A DNA stretch of 64,000 bases from Elusimicrobiales bacterium (GCA_023701245.1 JAMPXK010000005.1:385-64384), one strand, 5' to 3'. Counted from the stretch's first letter, positions 782 to 41,650 are shown. The notes: a model not told the origin generated them from the sequence alone. Program-made: numbers and translations.

Positions 782-2767
782 GTGAGACGCGAATATTATT
801 CAGCATCGATCTCCGCTTTCTGCTCTTCTTCCTCGGAGCAGATAGTCGGTCATTTAAGCCGGGGCAGCGCTGACGCCGGCTTCGCCGTCGATCCAGAGCA
901 GCTTTCCGCCTGGACTCAGCAGATAGAGATTCTTCAAAAAGCGCTGCGGGGCAAAGAGGGCAAGATCTATTTCGAGTACTCCATCCCGCGCATGGGGCGC
1001 AGGATAGACGTGGTGCTCATAATCGAGCACGTGATCTTTGTGCTGGAGTTCAAGGTGGGCGCGCAGGACTTTTCGGCTTATGCGGTGGACCAGGTGCTGG
1101 ATTACGCGCTGGACCTTTCAAATTTCCACGAAACCAGCCACGGCAAATATGTGGCCCCGGTGCTTATCTCCACACAGGCCCAGCCCCAGCCGGTGGCCGT
1201 GAGCTGTTCCGCCAACAACCCCAAGCTCTTCACGCCCATCAAATGCGCCGCCTCGCAGATCAACCAGGTGATTGCCGCGGCGCTCGCCTTCGCCGACGGC
1301 CCCAGCATAGCTGCCGAAACCTGGGAGGGCGGGCGCTACTCGCCTACGCCCACCATTGTTGAAGCCGCCATGGCTTTATACCGCGGGCATAAAGTGGCGG
1401 AGATCAGCCGCAGCGACGCCGGCGCCATAAACCTGGCTCAGACCTCGGCCAGCGTGGCGCAGATAATAGCCGCCGCCCGCGCGGGCCGGCGCAAGGCCAT
1501 CTGCTTTGTAGCGGGCGTGCCCGGCGCGGGGAAAACCCTGGTGGGCCTTAATATCGCCACCACCCACATCAACAAGGACGACGAGTTATACAGCGTCTTT
1601 CTTTCCGGCAATGGCCCGCTGGTGGCGGTGCTGCGCGAGGCCCTCGCCCGGGACAAGGTTCTGCATGAAAAGGCCAAGGGTAAAAAGGTAAGGAAAGGGG
1701 CCGTGCTCAGCGATGTTAAGATGTTTGTGCAGAACGTGCACAATTTCCGGGACGACTGCCTTATAGACGGGGGGCCGCCTAAAGAGCACGTGGCGCTTTT
1801 CGACGAGGCCCAGCGGGCCTGGGACCTGCAGCAGACAGCCAACTTCATGAAGCGCAAGAAGAAGCGCCCCGACTTCAACCAGTCCGAGCCGGAGTTCCTG
1901 ATCTCCTGCCTGGACCGGCATCCGGACTGGGCCGTGATAGTGTGCCTGGTGGGCGGCGGCCAGGAGATAAACACCGGCGAGGCCGGCATAAGCGAGTGGA
2001 TAGACTCGCTCCTGCGCCGGTTCCCCGGCTGGGACGTCTACATTTCGCCGCGCCTTACCGACAGCGAATACGGCGCGGGCTCGGTTATCGCCAAATTAAA
2101 AGAGACGCCGCTGAAGGTGGAATACAAGGACGAGCTGCACCTGGCCGTTTCGCTGCGCTCTTTCCGCGCCGAGCGCGTCTCCGAGCTGGTTAAGAAGGTG
2201 CTGGACCTGGAGGCCGCCTCCGCCAAAGAGACGCTTAAGGCCATTGGCGCCAACTACCCCATAGTGCTTACCCGCGACCTGCAGAAAGCCAAGCGCTGGC
2301 TGCGCGAGCGCGCGCAGGGCACCGAGCGCTACGGCATAGTGGTGTCTTCCCAGGCCGAGCGGCTTAAGCCCTACGCTATAGACGTGAAATCACCCGTGGA
2401 CCCGGTGGACTGGTTCCTGGCCGGCAAGGACGACGTGCGCTCGTCCTATTACCTGGAGGACGTGGCCACGGAATTCCACGTGCAGGGCCTGGAGCTGGAC
2501 TGGGCCTGCGTCACCTGGGACGCGGACATGCGGTTTACCCCCGCAGGCTGGGAGAACTGGTCCTTCAAGGGCAACAAATGGCTGCGCATCCTCAAAAACG
2601 CGCGCAAAGACTACCAGAAAAACGCCTACCGCGTTTTATTGACCCGCGCCCGCCAGGGCATGGTGCTGGTGGTGCCGGAGGGGGAGCCCGCCGACCACAC
2701 CCGACTCCCGGGGTTTTATAACTCCACCTACGAGTACCTGCAAAGCATCGGCTTCCCGGTAATTTAA
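782..2767 (+). CDS. DUF2075 / Schlafen-group-3-like ATPase-helicase with N-terminal nuclease-like region
   Basis: 664-aa ORF with Walker A GVPGAGKT. The N-terminal segment [13 protein letters not shown] looks PD-(D/E)xK/NERD-like, and the C-terminal [17 protein letters not shown] is typical of SF1-like helicase ends. Start is ambiguous (TTG 773 or GTG 782). Confidence 0.8.
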
Positions 2768-2841
2768 TTCAAAATAGTCATTTCCAACCCGACAGACCGT
2801 TGTCGGGTTGGCCTGCTATGCTATTGGCAGGAGGGGGCATT
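2358..2841 (+). repeat. repeat A1: DUF2075 3' end plus downstream palindrome/promoter (direct repeat of 3793..4277)
   Basis: Aligned by eye with 3793..4277. The encoded 126 aa differ at 6 positions, and the intergenic palindrome and -10 are identical. Confidence 0.85.
2786..2822 (+). promoter_or_regulatory. palindrome AACCCGACA-N6-TGTCGGGTT + 6 nt + TGcTATGCT extended -10 (module copy 1)
   Basis: CCCGACA 2788-2794, TGTCGGG 2801-2807, TATGCT 2817-2822. GGAGGGGG RBS and ATG 2842 follow. Confidence 0.7.
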
Positions 2842-3789
2842 ATGGGTATTAAGAGAATCACAGTGCAGGGAAAGGACGTTTCCATTATAGAGAAGGGGAA
2901 CGCCGATTATATCTCGTTGGGTGACATGGCCAGGAAGTTCGGCGATGAACTGCTTGTTTATGCCTGGATGCGCAACCGCAACACAGTGGAATTCCTTGGC
3001 ATATGGGAAAGGTTAAATAACCCGGATTTTAACCCTATCGAATTCGATAGGGTTAAAAAAGAAGCCGGGCTGAACAGTTTTACGCTTTCCCCGAAAAAAT
3101 GGCGCGAAGCGACCGGCGCGATCGGAGTGATTTCAAGGGCCGGGCGTTACGGAGGCGGTATCTTCGCCCATAAGGACATCGCCTTCGAATTCGCGGCCTG
3201 GCTCAGCCCAGAATTCAAACTATACCTGATAAAGGAATTTCAGCGCCTGAAGGAGGCCGAGGCCGAGCGCCTGAAAACAGGCTGGGATGTTCAGCGTGCG
3301 CTCGCTAAAGTGAATTACCGCATCCACACGGACGCCATAAAAGAGGTGCTGCTGCCGCCGCGCCTGGGGCATGCCCAGATAGAAGCCGTCTATGCCAGCG
3401 AGGCGGACCTGCTGAACGTAGCCCTGTTCGGCCGCACGGCGGCGCAGTGGCGGCAGGAGAATCCCGCGAGGCAAGGCAATATGCGTGACTATGCCACTGT
3501 TGATCAGTTGGTTGTTCTTTCAAATCTCGAAAGCGTGAATTCGGTGCTGATTCGGCAGGGGCTGACGCAGAGTCAAAGGCTGCGTCAATTGAATGCCACG
3601 GCGATAGCACAGATGCACTCGCTGCTCGGACTACCGGCTGTCAGGCGCCTTGGGACAAAGGAACCGGAGGCAAAATACACGGCCGGATCAAACCGGAAGT
3701 CAAAGGGGTCGAATTCGACCCCTTATCAATATTTTAATTATGGCGAATCTGCCATATTTAGAACGGTTAGGAGGGTACATGAAAACTAA
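2842..3789 (+). CDS. KilA-N domain protein (antirepressor-like)
   Basis: The N-terminus (ISLGDMARKFG...WMRNRNTVEFLGIWE...GGIFAHKDIAFEFAAWLSPEFKLYLIKEFQRL) matches KilA-N proteins as I remember them. RBS lies before ATG 2842. Confidence 0.8.
   Translation: MGIKRITVQGKDVSIIEKGNADYISLGDMARKFGDELLVYAWMRNRNTVEFLGIWERLNNPDFNPIEFDRVKKEAGLNSFTLSPKKWREATGAIGVISRAGRYGGGIFAHKDIAFEFAAWLSPEFKLYLIKEFQRLKEAEAERLKTGWDVQRALAKVNYRIHTDAIKEVLLPPRLGHAQIEAVYASEADLLNVALFGRTAAQWRQENPARQGNMRDYATVDQLVVLSNLESVNSVLIRQGLTQSQRLRQLNATAIAQMHSLLGLPAVRRLGTKEPEAKYTAGSNRKSKGSNSTPYQYFNYGESAIFRTVRRVHEN
3736..3788 (+). repeat. repeat B' (copy of 5511..5565 junction, contains a decapitated MKT start)
   Basis: ttatggcgaatctgccatatttagaacggttaggagggtacatgaaaac here versus ttgtggcgaattcgccatatttagaacggttaggagggaacatgaaaac at 5511. 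Confidence 0.8.
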
Positions 3790-3792
3790 AGT

Positions 3793-4200
3793 CGGGCTTC
3801 ACCTTACGCCATAGACGTGAAATCCCCCGTGGACCCGGTTGACTGGTTCCTGGCCGGCAAGGACGACGTGCGCTCGTCCTATTATCTGGAGGACGTGGCC
3901 ACGGAATTCCACGTGCAGGGCCTGGAGCTGGACTGGGCCTGCGTCACCTGGGACGCGGACATGCGGTTTACACCCGCGGGCTGGGAGAACTGGTCCTTCA
4001 AGGGCGACAAATGGCTGCGCATCCTCAAAGACGCGCGCAAAGACTACCAGAAGAACGCTTACCGCGTGTTACTCACCCGCGCCCGCCAAGGCATGGTACT
4101 GGTGGTGCCGGAGGGGGAGACCGCGGACCACACCCGGCTCCCGGGGTTCTATAACTCCACCTACGACTACCTGCGGGATATCGGCTTCCCTGTAATTTAA
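3793..4200 (+). pseudogene. orphan 3' fragment of a DUF2075 gene (repeat A2)
   Basis: The 127-aa ORF 3817..4200 is ~95% identical to the C-terminus of the 782..2767 product. It lacks the whole ATPase part. Confidence 0.85.
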
Positions 4201-4220
4201 ATACAAAATCGCCATTCGCA

Positions 4221-4257
4221 AACCCGACAGACCGTTGTCGGGTTCACCTGCTATGCT
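4221..4257 (+). promoter_or_regulatory. palindrome + extended -10 module copy 2
   Basis: CCCGACA 4223-4229, TGTCGGG 4236-4242, TATGCT 4252-4257. Lies inside repeat A2. Confidence 0.7.
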
Positions 4258-4277
4258 ATTTGTGGGAAGGGGGACTT

Positions 4278-5369
4278 ATGGCCAAGAAAAAGCAGGTAAA
4301 GAAGATTGCACATTCGCAGTCACAGCCACCGGCAGTAGTGGATGAAGCCGGGCTTCTTTCCGACCTCCGTGCGCTCATTCAATCCGCCCGCCAGCGCGTG
4401 GCCACAGTGGCCAATTCTACATTTACAATGCTGTACTGGCATGTAGGGCGACGCTTGCTGAAGGAAAACCTTCAAGGAGGCCGTGCTGCCTATGGGAAAC
4501 GAATTCTTGCGACAGTGTCGCAACAATTGAGCGCAGACTTCGGGGAAGGGTTTACTTACTCTGCGCTTACCAGGATGATCCGCTTTGCGGAAGCTCAACC
4601 AGATGAGGCAATTGTGTCGACGCTGTCGACACAATTAAGCTGGAGCCATTTCATGGAGATATTGCCGGTCAAAGATCCGCTCGCCCGGGACTTCTACGCA
4701 GAGATGTGCCGGATCGAGCATTGGGACGTCCGCACGCTGCGCAAAAAGATAGGCGGTATGTTATTCCAGCGCACGGCCCTGTCGAAGAATACCAAGGAGG
4801 TGATCTCGGCGGAACTCGGCAACCTGCGCGCAGGTCATGTAACGCCTGAGACCGTTTTCCGCGACCCGTATATTCTGGATTGCCTGGGCCTGAAAGGAGC
4901 CTATAGTGAACGCGACCTGGAAGGCGCCATCCTGCGCGAGATGGAAGGCTTCCTGCTGGAAATGGGCCCGGGGTTCAGTTTTGTCGCCCGGCAAAAACGT
5001 ATGAGCGTGGGCAAGGATGACTTTCATCTGGACCTGCTCTTCTATCATCGTCACCTGCGCCGGCTGGTCGCCATTGAGTTAAAGCTTGAGTCTTTTCAAC
5101 CGGCCCATGTGGGGCAGATGGAGTTCTACTTGCGCTGGCTGGACAAGCATGAACGAGCACCCGGTGAAAAGTCTCCTATCGGTCTGATACTCTGTGCCTC
5201 TGCCGACGCTGAACAGGTGGAACTCTGTCGGTTGGACGCCAAAGCCATCCGCGTAAGCGAATACCTCACCGAACTGCCGCCCATGCCTCTTCTGCAGACC
5301 CGCCTGCACCAGGCTATAGAGCACGCCCGTGAGCAGGCCGCCATGCGCCTCAGAGGAAAGGAGGGGTAA
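4278..5369 (+). CDS. YhcG-like PDDEXK nuclease domain protein (DUF1016)
   Basis: The C-terminal DLLFYHRHLRRLVAIELKLESFQPAHVGQMEFYLRWL is the typical DUF1016/YhcG core. ATG 4278 follows GGGAAGGGGG. Confidence 0.8.
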   Translation: MAKKKQVKKIAHSQSQPPAVVDEAGLLSDLRALIQSARQRVATVANSTFTMLYWHVGRRLLKENLQGGRAAYGKRILATVSQQLSADFGEGFTYSALTRMIRFAEAQPDEAIVSTLSTQLSWSHFMEILPVKDPLARDFYAEMCRIEHWDVRTLRKKIGGMLFQRTALSKNTKEVISAELGNLRAGHVTPETVFRDPYILDCLGLKGAYSERDLEGAILREMEGFLLEMGPGFSFVARQKRMSVGKDDFHLDLLFYHRHLRRLVAIELKLESFQPAHVGQMEFYLRWLDKHERAPGEKSPIGLILCASADAEQVELCRLDAKAIRVSEYLTELPPMPLLQTRLHQAIEHAREQAAMRLRGKEG

Positions 5370-5371
5370 CG

Positions 5372-5398
5372 TTTGAGGTCGCAATTCGCGACCTCAAA
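5372..5398. repeat. perfect 11-5-11 palindrome TTTGAGGTCGC-aattc-GCGACCTCAAA
   Basis: Starts 2 nt after the yhcG-like stop. Reads L-R-S-Q-F-A-T-S-K in one frame. No U-tract follows. Confidence 0.8.
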
Positions 5399-5510
5399 GG
5401 GGCGGGGCGCCGGGCATTATTTGTCTTCGAATAGCGACGAGAGCTCCGGTCCGAAGAAATAAATAGGTTTTTGACCGGTATAAAATTAGACACGGGAGGC
5501 AGGGTAAATG

Positions 5511-5565
5511 TAATTGTGGCGAATTCGCCATATTTAGAACGGTTAGGAGGGAACATGAAAACGTT
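5511..5565 (+). repeat. repeat B (junction sequence with RBS and start of 5555 ORF)
   Basis: See 3736..3788. Confidence 0.8.
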
Positions 5566-5866
5566 AACTTATCCGTATGAGCAGCCGCTGCCTTACCCTA
5601 CCCGCCCTATAAAGGTCGAGGGCGGGTATGTCGACGCGTATATCATCCCCGAAGAGAAAAAGGGAGAGGTGTTAAAGGCGCTCTACCCTTTTATCCCTGT
5701 CCCGTCGCTGGATGCGGTGATGCTGGATATCCATGAGGACAAGACATTCAAGGTGCGGGAATTTATGGTGCTGCGCAGCCCGGAGATGCACTGGCTGGTC
5801 AGCCCGGACTATCCCAAAAGCGGGGGCACGGTAATAGACTGGTGTGACCCCGAAGAAGAAGGGTGA
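5555..5866 (+). CDS. hypothetical small protein (103 aa)
   Basis: GGAGGG RBS 6 nt upstream of ATG 5555. No family recognised. Confidence 0.55.
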   Translation: MKTLTYPYEQPLPYPTRPIKVEGGYVDAYIIPEEKKGEVLKALYPFIPVPSLDAVMLDIHEDKTFKVREFMVLRSPEMHWLVSPDYPKSGGTVIDWCDPEEEG

Positions 5867-5889
5867 CTTGTCCGATTCGACAGGCACCG

Positions 5890-6081
5890 CCTGTTGAATC
5901 CCGAGCGGTCAGGAATTGCTGGAAAGTCCTGAAAAACCGCCTTAAGGCCTAAGGCAGTGAGTTGGTTACAAGGTGTAACCAACTGAAATTGCAGGCCGCT
6001 GATGGCAAATACTACCTCACTGACGTGGCGTCCCCGGAACAGCCGGCGCAACTGGTGACAAATTGGCGCCGGTTCAGTTAA
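5890..6081 (+). pseudogene. remnant of a Bro-N/antirepressor-type gene (middle part only, in-frame TAA)
   Basis: One frame reads NCWKVLKNRLKA*GSELVTRCNQLKLQAADGKYYLTDVASPEQ. This resembles the YW..LK.RL..EGSE.VT.C.QLK..A.DGK...TD motif I recall from Bro-N family proteins. There is a stop at 5950-5952 and no start. Confidence 0.45.
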
Positions 6082-6089
6082 TCGCAGAC

Positions 6090-6114
6090 TTGAGGTTCCA
6101 AATTGGAACCTCAA
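6090..6114. repeat. perfect 12-1-12 palindrome TTGAGGTTCCAA-a-TTGGAACCTCAA
   Basis: Shares its outer arms TTGAGGT/ACCTCAA with 5372..5398. Reads L-R-F-Q-I-G-T-S-K-stop. Confidence 0.8.
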
Positions 6115-6180
6115 AATGAACTGGTTGCACAATATGTCCGTCCGGGCATAATTCTGCCACAGCTTGTGGCGGAAATAAGG

Positions 6181-6298
6181 CGTGACATTATGTCACGGGT
6201 TGAAACCCCTCGAATTCGAGGGGTTTAAATTGGCAACAGCCTGTTGCCAAATTGGGCGGAAGGCGGGGCCCGTCATTTTGGCGACAGCTTGTCGCCAA
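6181..6298. promoter_or_regulatory. array of three palindromes with rACA-N3-TGTy cores upstream of tag
   Basis: cGTGACA-tta-TGTCACg at 6181-6197, TTGGCAACA-gcc-TGTTGCCAA at 6230-6250, TTGGCGACA-gct-TGTCGCCAA at 6278-6298. Centres are ~51 and 48 bp apart. The last ends 6 nt before TATACT 6305-6310. Confidence 0.5.
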
Positions 6299-6310
6299 AT
6301 GAAATATACT

Positions 6311-6901
6311 ATGCGCATGGTTGAGAAAAAGATAGAGCGCTGCCCTTGGGCTTATGGTTCAAGCCCGCATTATATTCCCTACCACGACAGGGAGTGGGGC
6401 GTGCCGGTGCATAGCGACCGGGTGCAGTTCGAGTTCCTAACGCTGGAGAGCGCGCAGGCGGGGCTCAGCTGGAACACCATTTTGAACAAGCGCGAGGGCT
6501 ACCGCCGGGCTTTTGCCGGGTTCGACCCGGTTAAGGTGGCGCGCTTTACGCCGGCCAAAATAGCCGCCCTGCTTAAGGACCCGGGCATAGTGCGCAACCG
6601 CCTGAAGGTGCAGGCGGCGGTGCACAATGCGCGGCTGTTCCTGCAGGTTCAGAAAGAGTTCGGCAGTTTCTCTGCGTATATCTGGGGTTTCGTGGGCGGC
6701 CGGCAGAAGGTGAACCGCTGGCGGCGGCTGGCGCAGCTGCCGGCCCGTAGTGCCGAGTCCGACGCGCTCAGCGCGGACCTCAAGCGCCGGGGGTTTAAGT
6801 TCGTGGGCAGCACCATTATGTACGCCCACATGCAGGCCACCGGCCTGGTGAACGACCACCTTGTAGGCTGTTTCCGCCACAAGCCCTGCCAGCGCGGCTA
6901 G
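6311..6901 (+). CDS. tag: DNA-3-methyladenine glycosylase I
   Basis: ERCPWAYGSSPHYIPYHDREWGVP...LTLESAQAGLSWNTILNKREGYRRAF is collinear with E. coli Tag. The start may be ATG 6317, which would be leaderless (6 nt after TATACT). Confidence 0.9.
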   Translation: MRMVEKKIERCPWAYGSSPHYIPYHDREWGVPVHSDRVQFEFLTLESAQAGLSWNTILNKREGYRRAFAGFDPVKVARFTPAKIAALLKDPGIVRNRLKVQAAVHNARLFLQVQKEFGSFSAYIWGFVGGRQKVNRWRRLAQLPARSAESDALSADLKRRGFKFVGSTIMYAHMQATGLVNDHLVGCFRHKPCQRG

Positions 6902-6941
6902 CCCGCCCGGGCGCCGCTCAATTCCAAAAAATCCTCTCCCG

Positions 6942-6977
6942 CCCCGACACTACGGTGTCGGGGTGGTCTGCTATGCT
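6942..6977 (+). promoter_or_regulatory. palindrome + extended -10 module copy 3
   Basis: CCCGACA 6943-6949, TGTCGGG 6956-6962, TATGCT 6972-6977. Confidence 0.7.
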
Positions 6978-6999
6978 ATTTGTGAGGAAGAAGGGGATT

Positions 7000-7518
7000 A
7001 TGTCTAAAGAAATTATTCCACATGAGATACTTGAGTCAAAGATACTTTTGATCCGTAAACATAAAGTCCTGCTCGACCGCGACCTCGCAGCTCTATACCA
7101 GGTTGAAACCCGCGTATTGAACCAGGCGGTAAGACGTAATCTCGACCGCTTCCCGGAGGACTTTATTTTTAAGTTGACCCGCGATGAAATACGAGACTTA
7201 TCACAATTTGTGATAAGTCCGGGGCTCAAACATGCTCCTAACGTATTTGCGTTTACGGAGCAGGGGGTGGCGATGCTTTCCGGGGTGCTTCACAGTAAGC
7301 GCGCCATAGCGGTCAACATCGCTATAATGCGCACCTTCGTCAAATTGCGTGGGTTGCTGGCCGAGCACGTTGACCTGAGGCGCAAACTGGAGGAGATGGA
7401 AAAGAAATATGACTACCAGTTCAAAGTGGTGTTCGACGCCATTAAAAGCCTTATCGCGGAGCCGCCGCCGGTTAAGAAGATAGGTTTTACGGCAAAGATC
7501 CAGGGTCACAATTTGTGA
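7000..7518 (+). CDS. ORF6N domain protein (Rha/antirepressor-like DNA-binding)
   Basis: VLLDRDLAALYQVETRVLNQAVRRNLDRFPEDFIFKLT...FAFTEQGVAMLSGVLHSKRAIAVNIAIMRTF is the typical ORF6N core. AAGGGG RBS precedes ATG 7000. Confidence 0.8.
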   Translation: MSKEIIPHEILESKILLIRKHKVLLDRDLAALYQVETRVLNQAVRRNLDRFPEDFIFKLTRDEIRDLSQFVISPGLKHAPNVFAFTEQGVAMLSGVLHSKRAIAVNIAIMRTFVKLRGLLAEHVDLRRKLEEMEKKYDYQFKVVFDAIKSLIAEPPPVKKIGFTAKIQGHNL

Positions 7519-17240: not shown

Positions 17241-17274
17241 AGGACCGGAGGAGATCCCTCCGGTCCTTTTTTTT
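17241..17274 (+). terminator. intrinsic terminator
   Basis: AGGACCGGAGG-agatc-CCTCCGGTCCT followed by T8. Confidence 0.85.
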
Positions 17275-17275
17275 A

Positions 17276-17310
17276 CCCGACACTACGCTGTCGGGGCGGC
17301 CTGCTATGCT
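17276..17310 (+). promoter_or_regulatory. palindrome + extended -10 module copy 4 (ssb)
   Basis: CCCGACA 17276-17282, TGTCGGG 17289-17295, TATGCT 17305-17310. Confidence 0.7.
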
Positions 17311-17342: not shown

Positions 17343-17852
17343 ATGGGGAACCTGAATAAAGTGATGCTGATAGGGCGGCTGACGCGCGACCCGGAGGTGA
17401 CGGAGTTCAAGAACGGGGGCAAGGTGGCCAACCTGGGCTTTGCCGTGCACAACCGCCGCAAGAACGCGCAGACCGGCGAGTGGGAGGAAGTGCCGGTGTG
17501 GGTGAGCATGAAGGCCTACAATCACGAGCATGGCCGCAAGCTCGCGGACCTGGCCGCCAGGCTGCACAAGGGGCGGCAGGTGTACGTGGAGGGGCACCTG
17601 GTGCTGGAGCAATGGGACGGCAAAGAGGACGGCAAGCACCATTCCCGGATGCTGGTGTACGTGGACGGCATAGAGTTCCTGGGCGGGGGAAAGCCCGGCG
17701 AAGGCCCGGGCGGCGGGGAAGCCGGCGCCCAGGCGGCGCCCGCGGACCATCTGCCGGGCGAGCACGTGGCAGACGCGGGCTGGCCGGAAGAACTGCCGGA
17801 AGAGCCCGCGGAACCCGCGCCCAGGGCGGCCAGGGGCAAGGGCCGCAAATAG
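17343..17852 (+). CDS. ssb: single-stranded DNA-binding protein
   Basis: OB-fold N-terminus NLNKVMLIGRLTRDPEV...VYVEGHL. The C-terminus ends RGKGRK rather than the acidic DDDIPF-type tip. Confidence 0.9.
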   Translation: MGNLNKVMLIGRLTRDPEVTEFKNGGKVANLGFAVHNRRKNAQTGEWEEVPVWVSMKAYNHEHGRKLADLAARLHKGRQVYVEGHLVLEQWDGKEDGKHHSRMLVYVDGIEFLGGGKPGEGPGGGEAGAQAAPADHLPGEHVADAGWPEELPEEPAEPAPRAARGKGRK

Positions 17853-34257: not shown

Positions 34258-35237
34258 GGAAATTCCTGGCTTTGGCCCTGCTGGCCGGGGCCTGCGGCTG
34301 CGGTAAAACCCCGGACCTGCCGGCCATGGCCCGCCTGGAGACTTACGCTTTCTCGCCGGCTTCTTCGCTGGAGTCCAGGATGACGGCGGTCCCCGCCGAA
34401 GTGCTGGAGTACTTCAGCGCTGAGGACAAGCGGCCGGATTACGCCTCCTACCTGCCGACCCCGGAAGAGAAACAGCTGCTGCTGGATTACCTGCGCCTGC
34501 TGCCGCCCGTTTACGAAAAAGTTTTCAAGGCGCGCTGCGTGGGCATCTATTTTATTTCCGGTTTCACGGGCAACGGGGTTACCAACTGGGTGATAGGACC
34601 CGGGGATAAAGTTTACTTTTACCTGGCCCTGAACCCGGCCGCTTTCAAGCAGGACCTGTCGCAAACGCTGACGGAACGCGAACGCAGCTGCTTTAAGCCC
34701 AAGCCGGGGTGGGAGGTGGCGGTGGCCGCCGGCGGCAAGTACAAGGGCCTCCTTTACGCGCTGGCGCACGAGGCCGCCCACGGGCTGGATTACGCGGCGG
34801 GCGTGTCGCCTTACACCGACGACACCATGCCGGAACGCTACCGGCCCGCCAAATGCCTGACGGGCAATTTCTTCCCGGGGGTCTGGCAAGGCTACCGCCA
34901 GCCCCTGCCCGCGGCGGATTTTCCGCTGCGCGACCAAATAACTTTCTACGGCCTGGGCGGCGGGCCCCGGCTGGAGCTGTACCAGGCGCCGGGGCTTTAC
35001 ATGGCCCTTGCCAAGTCCCAGTTCGCCTCGCTTTACGGGGCGCGCAGCTGGGCCGAAGACCTGGCCGAACTGGAAACCTTCCACACCCTGACCGCCGTCC
35101 TGGGCCAGCAGCCCAGGATAACCCTTAAGGGGCCCGACGGCGTCCGGTATACCATCCGCCCCATGGACGGCCCTGCCGCCGCCCGCGCGGCGGTGCTGCG
35201 GCAGCTGCTGCAAAAAGTCCCTCTTTCCGCTTTCTAA
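34254..35237 (+). CDS. lipoprotein with HExxH motif (putative metallopeptidase)
   Basis: Lipobox LLAGAC and LAHEAAHGLDY. Confidence 0.55.
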   Translation: MRKFLALALLAGACGCGKTPDLPAMARLETYAFSPASSLESRMTAVPAEVLEYFSAEDKRPDYASYLPTPEEKQLLLDYLRLLPPVYEKVFKARCVGIYFISGFTGNGVTNWVIGPGDKVYFYLALNPAAFKQDLSQTLTERERSCFKPKPGWEVAVAAGGKYKGLLYALAHEAAHGLDYAAGVSPYTDDTMPERYRPAKCLTGNFFPGVWQGYRQPLPAADFPLRDQITFYGLGGGPRLELYQAPGLYMALAKSQFASLYGARSWAEDLAELETFHTLTAVLGQQPRITLKGPDGVRYTIRPMDGPAAARAAVLRQLLQKVPLSAF

Positions 35238-39669: not shown

Positions 39670-40326
39670 TTATTTCTTAATGACGGCGACGGCTTTGCCG
39701 TTTATGAGGAAGTCGTCGTCGGGGTGCAGGTAGATGGGCTCGTAGTCGTGGGAGGAGTCCGCCTTCAGGATCACCTGGCCGTTGGGGCGGTCGTCTATGA
39801 AGCGCTTGATGGTGGCCTTGTTGTCTATGATGGCCAGCACGATGTCGTTGTTGGCCGGCACGCGCTTGTTGCTGTCTATCACCACGTAGTCGCCGTCCTC
39901 TATCTTCTTGCCGGCTATTTCGGCGCGGTTCATGGACGAGCCGTTGGTCTTTATGGCGTAGAGGCCGGCCGGGGTGGCGCGGCCCACCAGGCGCCCGGAG
40001 ACGCGCAGGAAGCCTTCGAAGTTCTGTTCGGCGTAGATGGTGGCGGCGCCGCAGTTGGCGGTGCCTACTATAGGAATAGAAAATAATGAGGAGGCTTCTT
40101 TCAGCAGGCCGTGCGCCAGGCCCGGCAGCAGCTTGGCTTTCTCCATCATGCCCTTGGCCTTGTCTATGGTGAAGAAGCCTTTCTTCTCCAGCTGCTGGAG
40201 ATGATGCTTTATTTTCTGGGGGGATTCCTTCGGCAGGCCGATGGCCGCGGCCATCTCGCGCAGGCTGATCTGGGCCAGGTTGGTCTTCTTGGAAAGGGTT
40301 AAAAGTTTTTCCTGTATGGGGTGCAT
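39670..40326 (-). CDS. lexA: LexA-type repressor (wHTH + S24 peptidase)
   Basis: N-terminal winged-helix region, then the S24 catalytic GSSM ... KRF pair. Confidence 0.85.
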   Translation of the reverse strand: MHPIQEKLLTLSKKTNLAQISLREMAAAIGLPKESPQKIKHHLQQLEKKGFFTIDKAKGMMEKAKLLPGLAHGLLKEASSLFSIPIVGTANCGAATIYAEQNFEGFLRVSGRLVGRATPAGLYAIKTNGSSMNRAEIAGKKIEDGDYVVIDSNKRVPANNDIVLAIIDNKATIKRFIDDRPNGQVILKADSSHDYEPIYLHPDDDFLINGKAVAVIKK

Positions 40327-40333
40327 ATATATA

Positions 40334-40362
40334 AGGATAGCACACTAAACCGGTAAAGTCAA
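40334..40362 (-). promoter_or_regulatory. lexA promoter TTGACT-N17-(TGc)TATCCT
   Basis: Read on the minus strand. The -10 ends 7 nt before ATG 40326, so this is a leaderless candidate. Confidence 0.55.
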
Positions 40363-40376
40363 TATCTCCTTAATAC

Positions 40377-40405
40377 TTGACAGATGGAGGAAAATCGTCT
40401 ATACT
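40377..40405 (+). promoter_or_regulatory. distal recA promoter TTGACA-N17-TATACT
   Basis: Near-consensus sigma70 hexamers with a 17-nt spacer. Confidence 0.6.
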
Positions 40406-40473
40406 CAAGGGAGTTGCGGTGAGGCTGTTTTTGGGCGCGGCGCAGAAATGTTAACATAATATATGCCCCGCAA

Positions 40474-40508
40474 CCCGACACAACGGTGTCGGGATGAGTT
40501 GGTAGACT
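40474..40508 (+). promoter_or_regulatory. palindrome + extended -10 module copy 5 (recA proximal)
   Basis: CCCGACA 40474-40480, TGTCGGG 40487-40493, TGgTAGACT 40500-40508. Confidence 0.7.

Positions 40509-40543: not shown

Positions 40544-41649
<1,106 letters not shown>

Positions 41650-41650
<1 letters not shown>

Follow-up and report, generated by a model that had tools for sequence, protein, structure and literature searches.

In a 64,000-nucleotide stretch of DNA from an Elusimicrobiales bacterium (GCA_023701245.1, JAMPXK010000005.1:385-64384; hereafter the window), the palindrome CCCGACA-N6-TGTCGGG stands at a fixed distance from a -10-like hexamer in front of five genes, encoding a KilA-N protein, a YhcG protein, an ORF6N protein, Ssb and RecA. 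This module is a genuine cis-regulatory element of fixed geometry, conserved lineage-wide in Elusimicrobia. It is probably a promoter without a -35 element that depends on a homodimeric factor with winged helix-turn-helix (wHTH), WYL and WCX domains, of the same kind as PafBC, DriD and DdaA, and that serves a LexA-independent DNA-damage regulon. The reading as a WYL-family activator promoter is suggested by the fixed -10 spacing, the lack of a -35, the identity with the PafBC motif and the half-sites shared with DriD and DdaA, and among the damage-response systems run by WYL activators the feature is best classed as a new member specific to Elusimicrobia. To our knowledge, only Actinobacteria, Caulobacter and Acinetobacter have a LexA-independent damage response under WYL activators that has been characterised in detail. 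If the reading is true, a fourth lineage would be added, from a phylum that branches deeply and is for the most part uncultured.

The module in the window

The palindrome occurs in five perfect copies in the window, all on the + strand. At up to two mismatches 0.36 matches are expected by chance, and none of 100 dinucleotide-preserving shuffles gave six; the sixth match, at 34845, is put down to chance, having two mismatches, an intragenic position and no -10. The distance from the palindrome arm to the -10-like hexamer is exactly 9 nt in all five copies. TGn precedes the hexamer and ATT follows it in the first four copies, after which come a ribosome-binding site (RBS) and an ATG.

2786-2822, +, module copy 1: AACCCGACA-GACCGT-TGTCGGGTT, core 2788-2807, 9-nt spacer with TGc, -10 TATGCT at 2817-2822
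4221-4257, +, module copy 2: core 4223-4242, within the duplicated segment 3802-4272, -10 TATGCT at 4252-4257
6941-6977, +, module copy 3: core 6943-6962, -10 TATGCT at 6972-6977
17274-17310, +, module copy 4: core 17276-17295, preceded by a terminator-like hairpin with a T-run, -10 TATGCT at 17305-17310
40472-40508, +, module copy 5, the recA promoter: core 40474-40493, -10 TAGACT at 40503-40508, no -35
2369-2837, +, left copy of the duplication: about 470 bp, about 95% identical to 3802-4272, helicase 3' end and module

One full form of the palindrome reads AACCCGACACTACGCTGTCGGGTT. A scan of 2600-7200 for sigma-70 promoters found no -35 at the three module copies there. The duplicated segment consists of the 3' end of a Schlafen-like/DUF2075 helicase gene and the module, and since copies 1 and 2 share it, the window holds four independent copies.

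Conservation of the module in Elusimicrobia

One genome from each of 185,579 species was scanned with the pattern CCCGACA-N6-TGTCGGG-N6-TGnTAnnnT, for which about four chance hits are expected, and at least 117 stretches matched. The labels among the matches listed are Elusimicrobia, Elusimicrobiales, Elusimicrobiaceae or unlabelled 'bacterium' metagenome-assembled genomes (MAGs), with no other phylum; up to nine of these stretches lie in one MAG. Together, the window and the 117 loci listed contain 136 perfect palindromes, and in every one of them exactly 9 nt separate one of the arms from a -10-like hexamer. TGnTAnnnT is present at 133 of them, and the other three have TATACT (two) or a one-base-mutated TGTGCT at the same distance. 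TGn precedes the -10 in about 88-97% of the collected modules, a frequency inflated by the search pattern.

In the logo of the collected modules the dyad widens to 24 bp, AACCCGACA-N6-TGTCGGGTT, with A at -2 in 81% and T at +21 in 95%. Conservation ends a few bases past the -10, which therefore marks a short cis-element and not a longer repeat; beyond the core of about 40 bp the flanks are unrelated among modules, the one duplication excepted. The initial annotation of this DNA had described the palindrome and promoter as a unit of fixed geometry, with a caveat about the duplication, and both points hold. The motif recurs in front of recA and ssb in relatives, as described next.

Genes headed by the module

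A same-strand open reading frame (ORF) starts within 200 nt downstream of 126 of 133 modules. After exclusion of 11 convergent artefact cases, a start codon lies within 45 nt on the same strand in 86 of 115 (75%). Downstream genes were sorted by clustering and Pfam; the counts below are modules, with the window included, among the matches listed.

ssb: 9 modules
Y1_Tnp + DnaA_C-HTH proteins: 8 modules
ORF6N: 8 modules
YhcG: 7 modules (seven module-linked orthologues in other MAGs)
AlbA_2/HATPase_c_4/wHTH proteins: 7 modules
98-aa protein of no assigned family: 7 modules
RadC: 6 modules
Small ORF of about 63 aa: 6 clustered modules (more by eye)
ComM: 5 modules
UvrD/PD-(D/E)XK (AddA-like): 4 modules
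DUF2779: 4 modules
RecQ: 3 modules
Bro-N: 3 modules
IS91-type Y2 transposase: 3 modules
Gp49/HigB-like: 3 modules
BrnT-like: 3 modules (weak Pfam match, below the curated cut-off)
Radical-SAM/HhH repair protein: 2 modules
DUF3800: 2 modules
KilA-N: 2 modules (window and locus L099)
RhuM: 1 module
DUF559 endonuclease: 1 module

In addition, recA stands behind the module, both in the window and at 17 related loci from metagenomes. This gene content (recA, ssb, recQ, the AddA-like gene, radC, comM and the radical-SAM repair gene) is consistent with a damage-induced set, and the DNA-damage-type regulon suspected in the initial annotation is plausible. The regulon shares recA and ssb with those of PafBC and DdaA.

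At 25 modules, whose genes include comM, recQ, the radical-SAM gene and the small ORF, the distance from the -10 to the start codon is exactly 6 nt, and these 25 genes would be transcribed as leaderless mRNAs. The 25 starts, which belong to several unrelated families, independently support the hexamer as a functional -10 and fix the transcription start; with the leaderless ATG as +1, TGTCGG falls at -28 to -23. Starts 6-7 nt past a -10 and lacking an RBS are found at many module loci and also at the lexA gene of the window, and leaderless mRNAs seem to be common in this group of Elusimicrobia.

Similarity to promoters of WYL-family activators

PafBC recognizes the bipartite motif tGTCgg(N10)tA(N3)T, in which TGTCGG forms a '-26 element' at -23 to -28 of promoters without a -35, a mode of action termed 'sigma adaptation' (PMC8635444). 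The right arm of the module and its -10 equal this motif in letters and spacing, with the same element at -28 to -23, no -35 and recA as a target. The literal PafBC pattern has five matches in the window, where 0.05 are expected, and they fall only at the five modules. In both systems the regulator belongs to, or is proposed to belong to, the wHTH-WYL-WCX family, and a separate LexA system coexists with it. The two differ in that PafBC is a heterodimer or a fused protein with a non-palindromic site, whereas the module contains a perfect 2 x 9 bp palindrome, which implies a homodimer of a single 314-aa protein (introduced below). PafBC also belongs to another lineage, mycobacteria and other Actinobacteria, and has a proteasome linkage that is absent from the system described here.

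DriD of Caulobacter crescentus binds ATACGAC(N7)GTCGTAT, with ATACGACAGTAACTGTCGTAT as the optimal site, and runs an SOS-independent damage response that includes didA, bapE, recJ and dnaG. Like the factor proposed here, it is a homodimeric wHTH-WYL-WCX activator, and it is the best structural match of the Elusimicrobia candidate. Its pseudo-palindromic site likewise has CGACA/TGTCG half-sites, overlaps the -35 position and keeps a constant distance to the -10; the oligonucleotide sequences of its optimised -35 construct imply TGTCG, 11 nt and the -10, the register seen in the module. In both cases the regulator gene lies beside a target encoding a small protein. The central spacer of the DriD site is N5 (CGAC-N7-GTCG), compared to N6 in the module, the outer bases are ATA/TAT compared to AAC/GTT-type CC/GG, and the DriD regulon is small, whereas the module scan gave up to nine listed stretches per MAG, and recA and ssb are among the genes behind the module.

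In Acinetobacter the site CGACAATATGTGTCG is bound by DdaA, an activator of aciT, recA, ssb and uvrA (PMC13010146). DdaA shares with the module the CGACA...TGTCG half-sites, recA and ssb in the regulon and the control of a small damage-induced gene. It differs in its N5 spacer, in the position of the aciT site about 160 bp upstream of the gene, and in its host, since Acinetobacter has no LexA while the Elusimicrobia organism keeps a LexA-like protein.

A candidate WYL regulator

A regular-expression search for a WYL gene gave no match, nor did phmmer with BrxR of E. fergusonii. A hidden Markov model (HMM) of five CapW/BrxR sequences was rebuilt from PDB alignments and used to search 7,208 ORFs. 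It gave one weak match (E = 0.0013), a 314-aa protein encoded at 2666-3610 of locus L098. HTH_11 (26 bits), WYL (38.9, cut-off 21.8) and WCX (44.3, cut-off 23.9) domains were all found in it above the Pfam cut-offs. Its best sequence match in the PDB is PafBC. An AlphaFold model (predicted local distance difference test score 74) was compared to known structures using Foldseek, which returned DriD (8tp8, E = 1.8e-12) as the best match, followed by PafBC (6sj9/9fnd), with the repressors CapW and BrxR ranking below.

The WYL protein recurs in six module loci, and all ten loci examined (L023, L064, L077, L087, L091, L098 and L203-L206) have a module copy about 1.7 kb downstream of its gene. The order of this chromosomal locus is: tuf cluster, WYL gene, gene for a 343-aa protein, DUF350 gene, module, leaderless ORF of 51-65 aa and ORF of 89-90 aa. 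The 343-aa neighbour has no Pfam match. In L098 (2666-5805) and L203-L206 the locus stands beside tuf-secE-nusG-rplK, and the DUF350 gene encodes a membrane protein. The small module-driven ORF beside the WYL gene recalls didA (DriD) and aciT (DdaA), and has no obvious membrane segment.

Orthologues of the WYL protein form 86 clusters at 61% identity or more, the labelled ones all from Elusimicrobia, after which identity drops to 32%. Motif-bearing MAGs with an orthologue include GWC2_64_44, GWA2_61_42, GWF2_62_30 and STC_50, which is not an exhaustive census. Residues R40, S41, Q43, R44 and D45 of the recognition helix are invariant across the orthologues and in the 32%-identical homologue; R40 and R44 may be counterparts of R46 and R50 of PafB, the residues that contact the guanines of GTCG. 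The 32%-identical homologue is encoded on an unrelated contig of 44% GC (L200) that contains three CGACA-N6-TGTCG sites within 5 kb (2390-2405, 3307-3322 and 6283-6298), each 10-11 nt upstream of a -10-like hexamer, which suggests that the architecture may be widespread. Two more distant WYL homologues, P0088 and P0091, have no site or only an anecdotal GACA-N5-TGTC site. The window contains no WYL gene, and by local homology search none of its proteins resembles the WYL protein. Among the papers searched in full text, none treats SOS or WYL regulation in this phylum. Taken together, a regulator with wHTH, WYL and WCX domains co-occurs with a motif that has a GTCG core and a fixed distance to the -10 in place of a -35.

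LexA and its own promoter

The initial annotation had read the dyad as a candidate repressor operator bound by the LexA encoded in the window, while pointing out that it is not a known LexA box. The latter is borne out, as the sequence is unrelated to known LexA motifs. The genes and elements in question are:

39670-40326, -, LexA-like S24 autopeptidase gene (Peptidase_S24 + LexA_DNA_bind): divergent from recA, leaderless, not part of the module
40334-40382, -, lexA promoter: TGTCAAGTATTAAGGAG at 40382-40366, -35 TTGACT at 40362-40357, 17-nt spacer, TGcTATCCT at 40342-40334

As with SOS boxes, the palindrome overlaps the recA and ssb promoters and a LexA-like protein is encoded nearby. LexA autoregulation is nearly universal, and LexA boxes do not as a rule keep a constant distance to the -10. 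A set of 80 metagenome loci with relatives of the window LexA (62-98% identity) was fetched. The 17 closest have recA as the divergent neighbour of lexA, with the palindrome in the intergenic region (in L129, recA lies beyond the contig end). The distance from the palindrome to the recA -10 is always 9 nt in the resulting 18 recA promoters (window and 17 loci), while that to the lexA start varies from 100 to 179 nt. Most of these recA promoter copies, a set not collected via the TGn pattern, have neither the TGn extension nor a -35. In the other 63 loci, where recA is elsewhere, no palindrome with up to three mismatches was found within 400 bp upstream of lexA. The palindrome is therefore absent from the lexA promoter itself and does not vary in position relative to the promoters that carry it; given the near universality of autoregulation, this argues that it is an element of recA rather than the LexA box.

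The lexA gene has another conserved element in its place. Its ATG lies 7 nt past the -10 in the window, giving a canonical, leaderless promoter, and 55 of the 80 loci have the TGTCAAGTATTAAGGAG...TTGAC element in front of lexA, with no further occurrence in the 1.3 Mb of fetched sequence. The element, also written TGTCAAGT or TGTCAAGTATTAAGGAGATATTGAC, contains GTCAA...TTGAC inverted repeats, and some relatives have tandem GTCAAGT repeats. We regard it as a candidate LexA box that is specific to the lineage, differs from the palindrome and possibly regulates lexA alone; LexA in this group may thus have few targets other than its own gene. On the 80 lexA loci, LexA was rejected as the palindrome binder of the main model. 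The cis-regulatory module linking recA and ssb with KilA-N, YhcG and ORF6N thus stands from the initial annotation, while the repression by LexA proposed there is probably incorrect.

The region separating the lexA promoter from the recA module also contains a perfect 10-bp palindrome, ATGTTAACAT, at 40445-40454, which is found in the same place in most of the 13 closest lexA loci (L120-L132).

Proposed mechanism and alternatives

We hypothesize that a dimer of the WYL protein binds the 24-bp palindrome within the module of 35-40 bp. The promoter-proximal half-site TGTCGG would lie 10 nt (TGTCG plus 11 nt) upstream of TAnnnT, and the proximal subunit would occupy the position of PafB or DriD, replacing the -35 contact and recruiting the housekeeping RNA polymerase. 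As in the related regulators, single-stranded DNA (ssDNA) derived from damage would be sensed by the WYL domain, and all genes headed by the module would be switched on independently of LexA. These would comprise repair genes (recA, ssb, radC, comM, recQ, the addA-like helicase-nuclease and the radical-SAM repair gene) as well as accessory genes (KilA-N, YhcG, ORF6N, Bro-N, AlbA_2 regulators, Y1/Y2 transposase-like and toxin-like genes). Binding of the palindrome by the WYL protein, an activating and not a repressing effect on the promoters, and ssDNA or DNA damage as the signal are inferences. Because they have no -35 and mostly no TGn, the recA promoters are expected to be weak without an activator.

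If correct, the model would make one architecture common to several phyla, in which 11 nt separate a TGTCG half-site from the -10 and a -35 is absent, and the more than 130 near-identical sites form an unusually clean set for it. It would also provide a regulon map for Elusimicrobiales in which KilA-N, ORF6N, Bro-N, YhcG and the Y1 transposase-DnaA_C fusions are flagged as probably damage-inducible.

Several points weigh against the model. Binding, expression and transcription starts are predicted from sequence. The gene of the factor lies outside the window, and factor and site are linked by adjacency, co-occurrence and family analogy. WYL regulators can be repressors, as is the case for CapW and BrxR, which PMC11662680 presents as ssDNA-sensing wHTH-WYL-WCX repressors. 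The TGn extended -10 of most modules could confer basal activity independent of an activator, and the half-site spacing is N6 compared to N5 in DriD and DdaA. As the pattern forced TGnTAnnnT and the matches number at least 117, the census of sites is incomplete as well as biased. Competence regulons, too, typically include ComM, RadC, Ssb and RecA, and the signal could therefore be DNA uptake or phage attack in place of genotoxic damage. There is, finally, a slight chance that LexA binds the palindrome, to which we return below.

Among the alternatives, most weight is given to the same WYL protein acting as a repressor, although we consider this unlikely: it would block polymerase at an extended -10 and release on ssDNA, so that the genes are derepressed after damage. 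CapW and BrxR, which act in this way, are also fold relatives of the candidate, TGn can free a promoter from its -35, and a dyad at -41 to -22 is compatible with occlusion. However, the TGn frequency is inflated by the pattern, and the unbiased recA set, being mostly without TGn and -35, would consist of promoters that are weak if unoccupied. The -10 spacing, which is invariant and exactly that seen with PafBC and DriD, both activators, is not required for repression, and the nearest fold matches are activators. Rather less probable is that some other dimeric factor binds the palindrome, with the adjacency of the WYL gene being coincidental or the WYL gene being a target. The link of the WYL protein to the site is indeed indirect, and candidates for such a factor exist in the AlbA_2-HATPase_c_4-wHTH proteins, encoded by seven module-driven genes, and in the 343-aa protein of no Pfam family co-transcribed with the WYL gene. 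The AlbA_2 genes, however, are accessory and patchy in distribution, whereas the GTCG half-site and the -10 register are specific hallmarks of characterised WYL activators, and the distant WYL homologue is again found amid CGACA-N6-TGTCG sites.

It is improbable that the palindrome is a novel LexA box through which the LexA at 39670-40326 represses all modules in a classical SOS response. This would account for the palindrome between the divergent lexA and recA genes, for recA and ssb as common SOS genes and for the overlap of dyad and promoter, but not for its absence upstream of lexA in 63 of 63 loci without an adjacent recA, its variable distance to lexA elsewhere, or the different element at the lexA promoter. 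A fixed distance to the -10 is atypical of LexA boxes, and half-site and register match the sites of WYL factors. The last alternative, a non-regulatory repeat like repetitive extragenic palindromes or miniature inverted-repeat transposable elements, or an intrinsic terminator, spread by duplication, is effectively refuted. In its favour are the GC-rich stem, the occurrence of Y1 (IS200-like) and Y2 (IS91) transposase genes nearby, and the relaxed matches in phage contigs, which are terminators; yet three quarters of the modules are closely followed by a same-strand start, the downstream genes are functionally coherent, the flanks are unrelated, and the stem is followed by TTgGTC and not by a T-run.

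Module-headed genes of the window

The identities of the five genes behind the modules, as given in the initial annotation, were confirmed by Pfam:

2842-3789, +, KilA-N domain gene, 315 aa (PF04383, 1.8e-16): behind copy 1, RBS GGAGGGGG, ATG 19 nt past the -10
4278-5369, +, YhcG_C + DUF1016_N gene, PD-(D/E)XK nuclease family, 363 aa (Pfam): behind copy 2
5555-5866, conserved small ORF after the YhcG gene
7000-7518, +, ORF6N-domain gene, 172 aa (PF10543, 1.9e-29): behind copy 3
17343-17852, +, ssb (Pfam SSB): behind copy 4
40544-41650, +, recA (Pfam RecA): behind copy 5

The GC content at third codon positions is about 0.62 in the three island genes (KilA-N, YhcG and ORF6N), compared to 0.8-0.9 in core genes. 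Their neighbours are a Schlafen-like helicase gene, tag, a NUDIX gene and a DnaQ-like exonuclease gene. The framing of these genes as prophage antirepressors finds no support: no phage structural genes flank them, and a scan of 2.9 million viral contigs for the module found none, the relaxed matches being terminator hairpins in low-GC phages. They are thus not obviously prophage antirepressors here. The three families recur behind the module in many MAGs, which makes them stable members of the regulon, though accessory ones. A homologue of the small ORF (p131) also follows YhcG in L067 and L016.

The KilA-N and YhcG genes share a left flank, the helicase 3' end and module (2369-2837 and 3802-4272, 95% identical), and a right flank, the RBS and start of the small ORF that follows YhcG (3735-3786 and 5511-5562, 92% identical). 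The arrangement resembles a tandem of alternative cargo genes. The gene after tag varies among relatives, being ORF6N in the window, KilA-N in L099 and ssb in L056, and module and gene units therefore look exchangeable. More speculatively, and with little confidence, module and gene might form an exchangeable cassette, the 40-bp promoter serving as a recombination handle that plugs acquired genes into an ssDNA alarm circuit for inducible defence or control of mobile elements, with some copies directed antisense into a ComEC-like gene. The acquired genes would be KilA-N, ORF6N, Bro-N, YhcG, RhuM, DUF3800, toxin-like and Y1/Y2 transposase-like genes.

Fusions and convergent modules

At 3400-4371 of L017 and in seven other loci, the module-driven gene encodes a fusion of an IS200-like Y1 transposase domain and a DnaA C-terminal HTH. 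In 11 MAG loci (L035:488-1542; L012, L071, L083, L085, L093, L094, L112 and others), the module faces the 3' end of a convergent, ComEC-like gene of the metallo-beta-lactamase (MBL) fold. A 300-aa 'gene family' behind these 11 modules was rejected as an antisense shadow ORF of the MBL-fold gene. In L035, which was read in detail, the stop codon of the MBL-fold gene lies 22 nt past the -10. Modules of this kind may direct a damage-induced antisense RNA, and an ATG 6 nt past the -10 is retained in 8 of the 11 loci.

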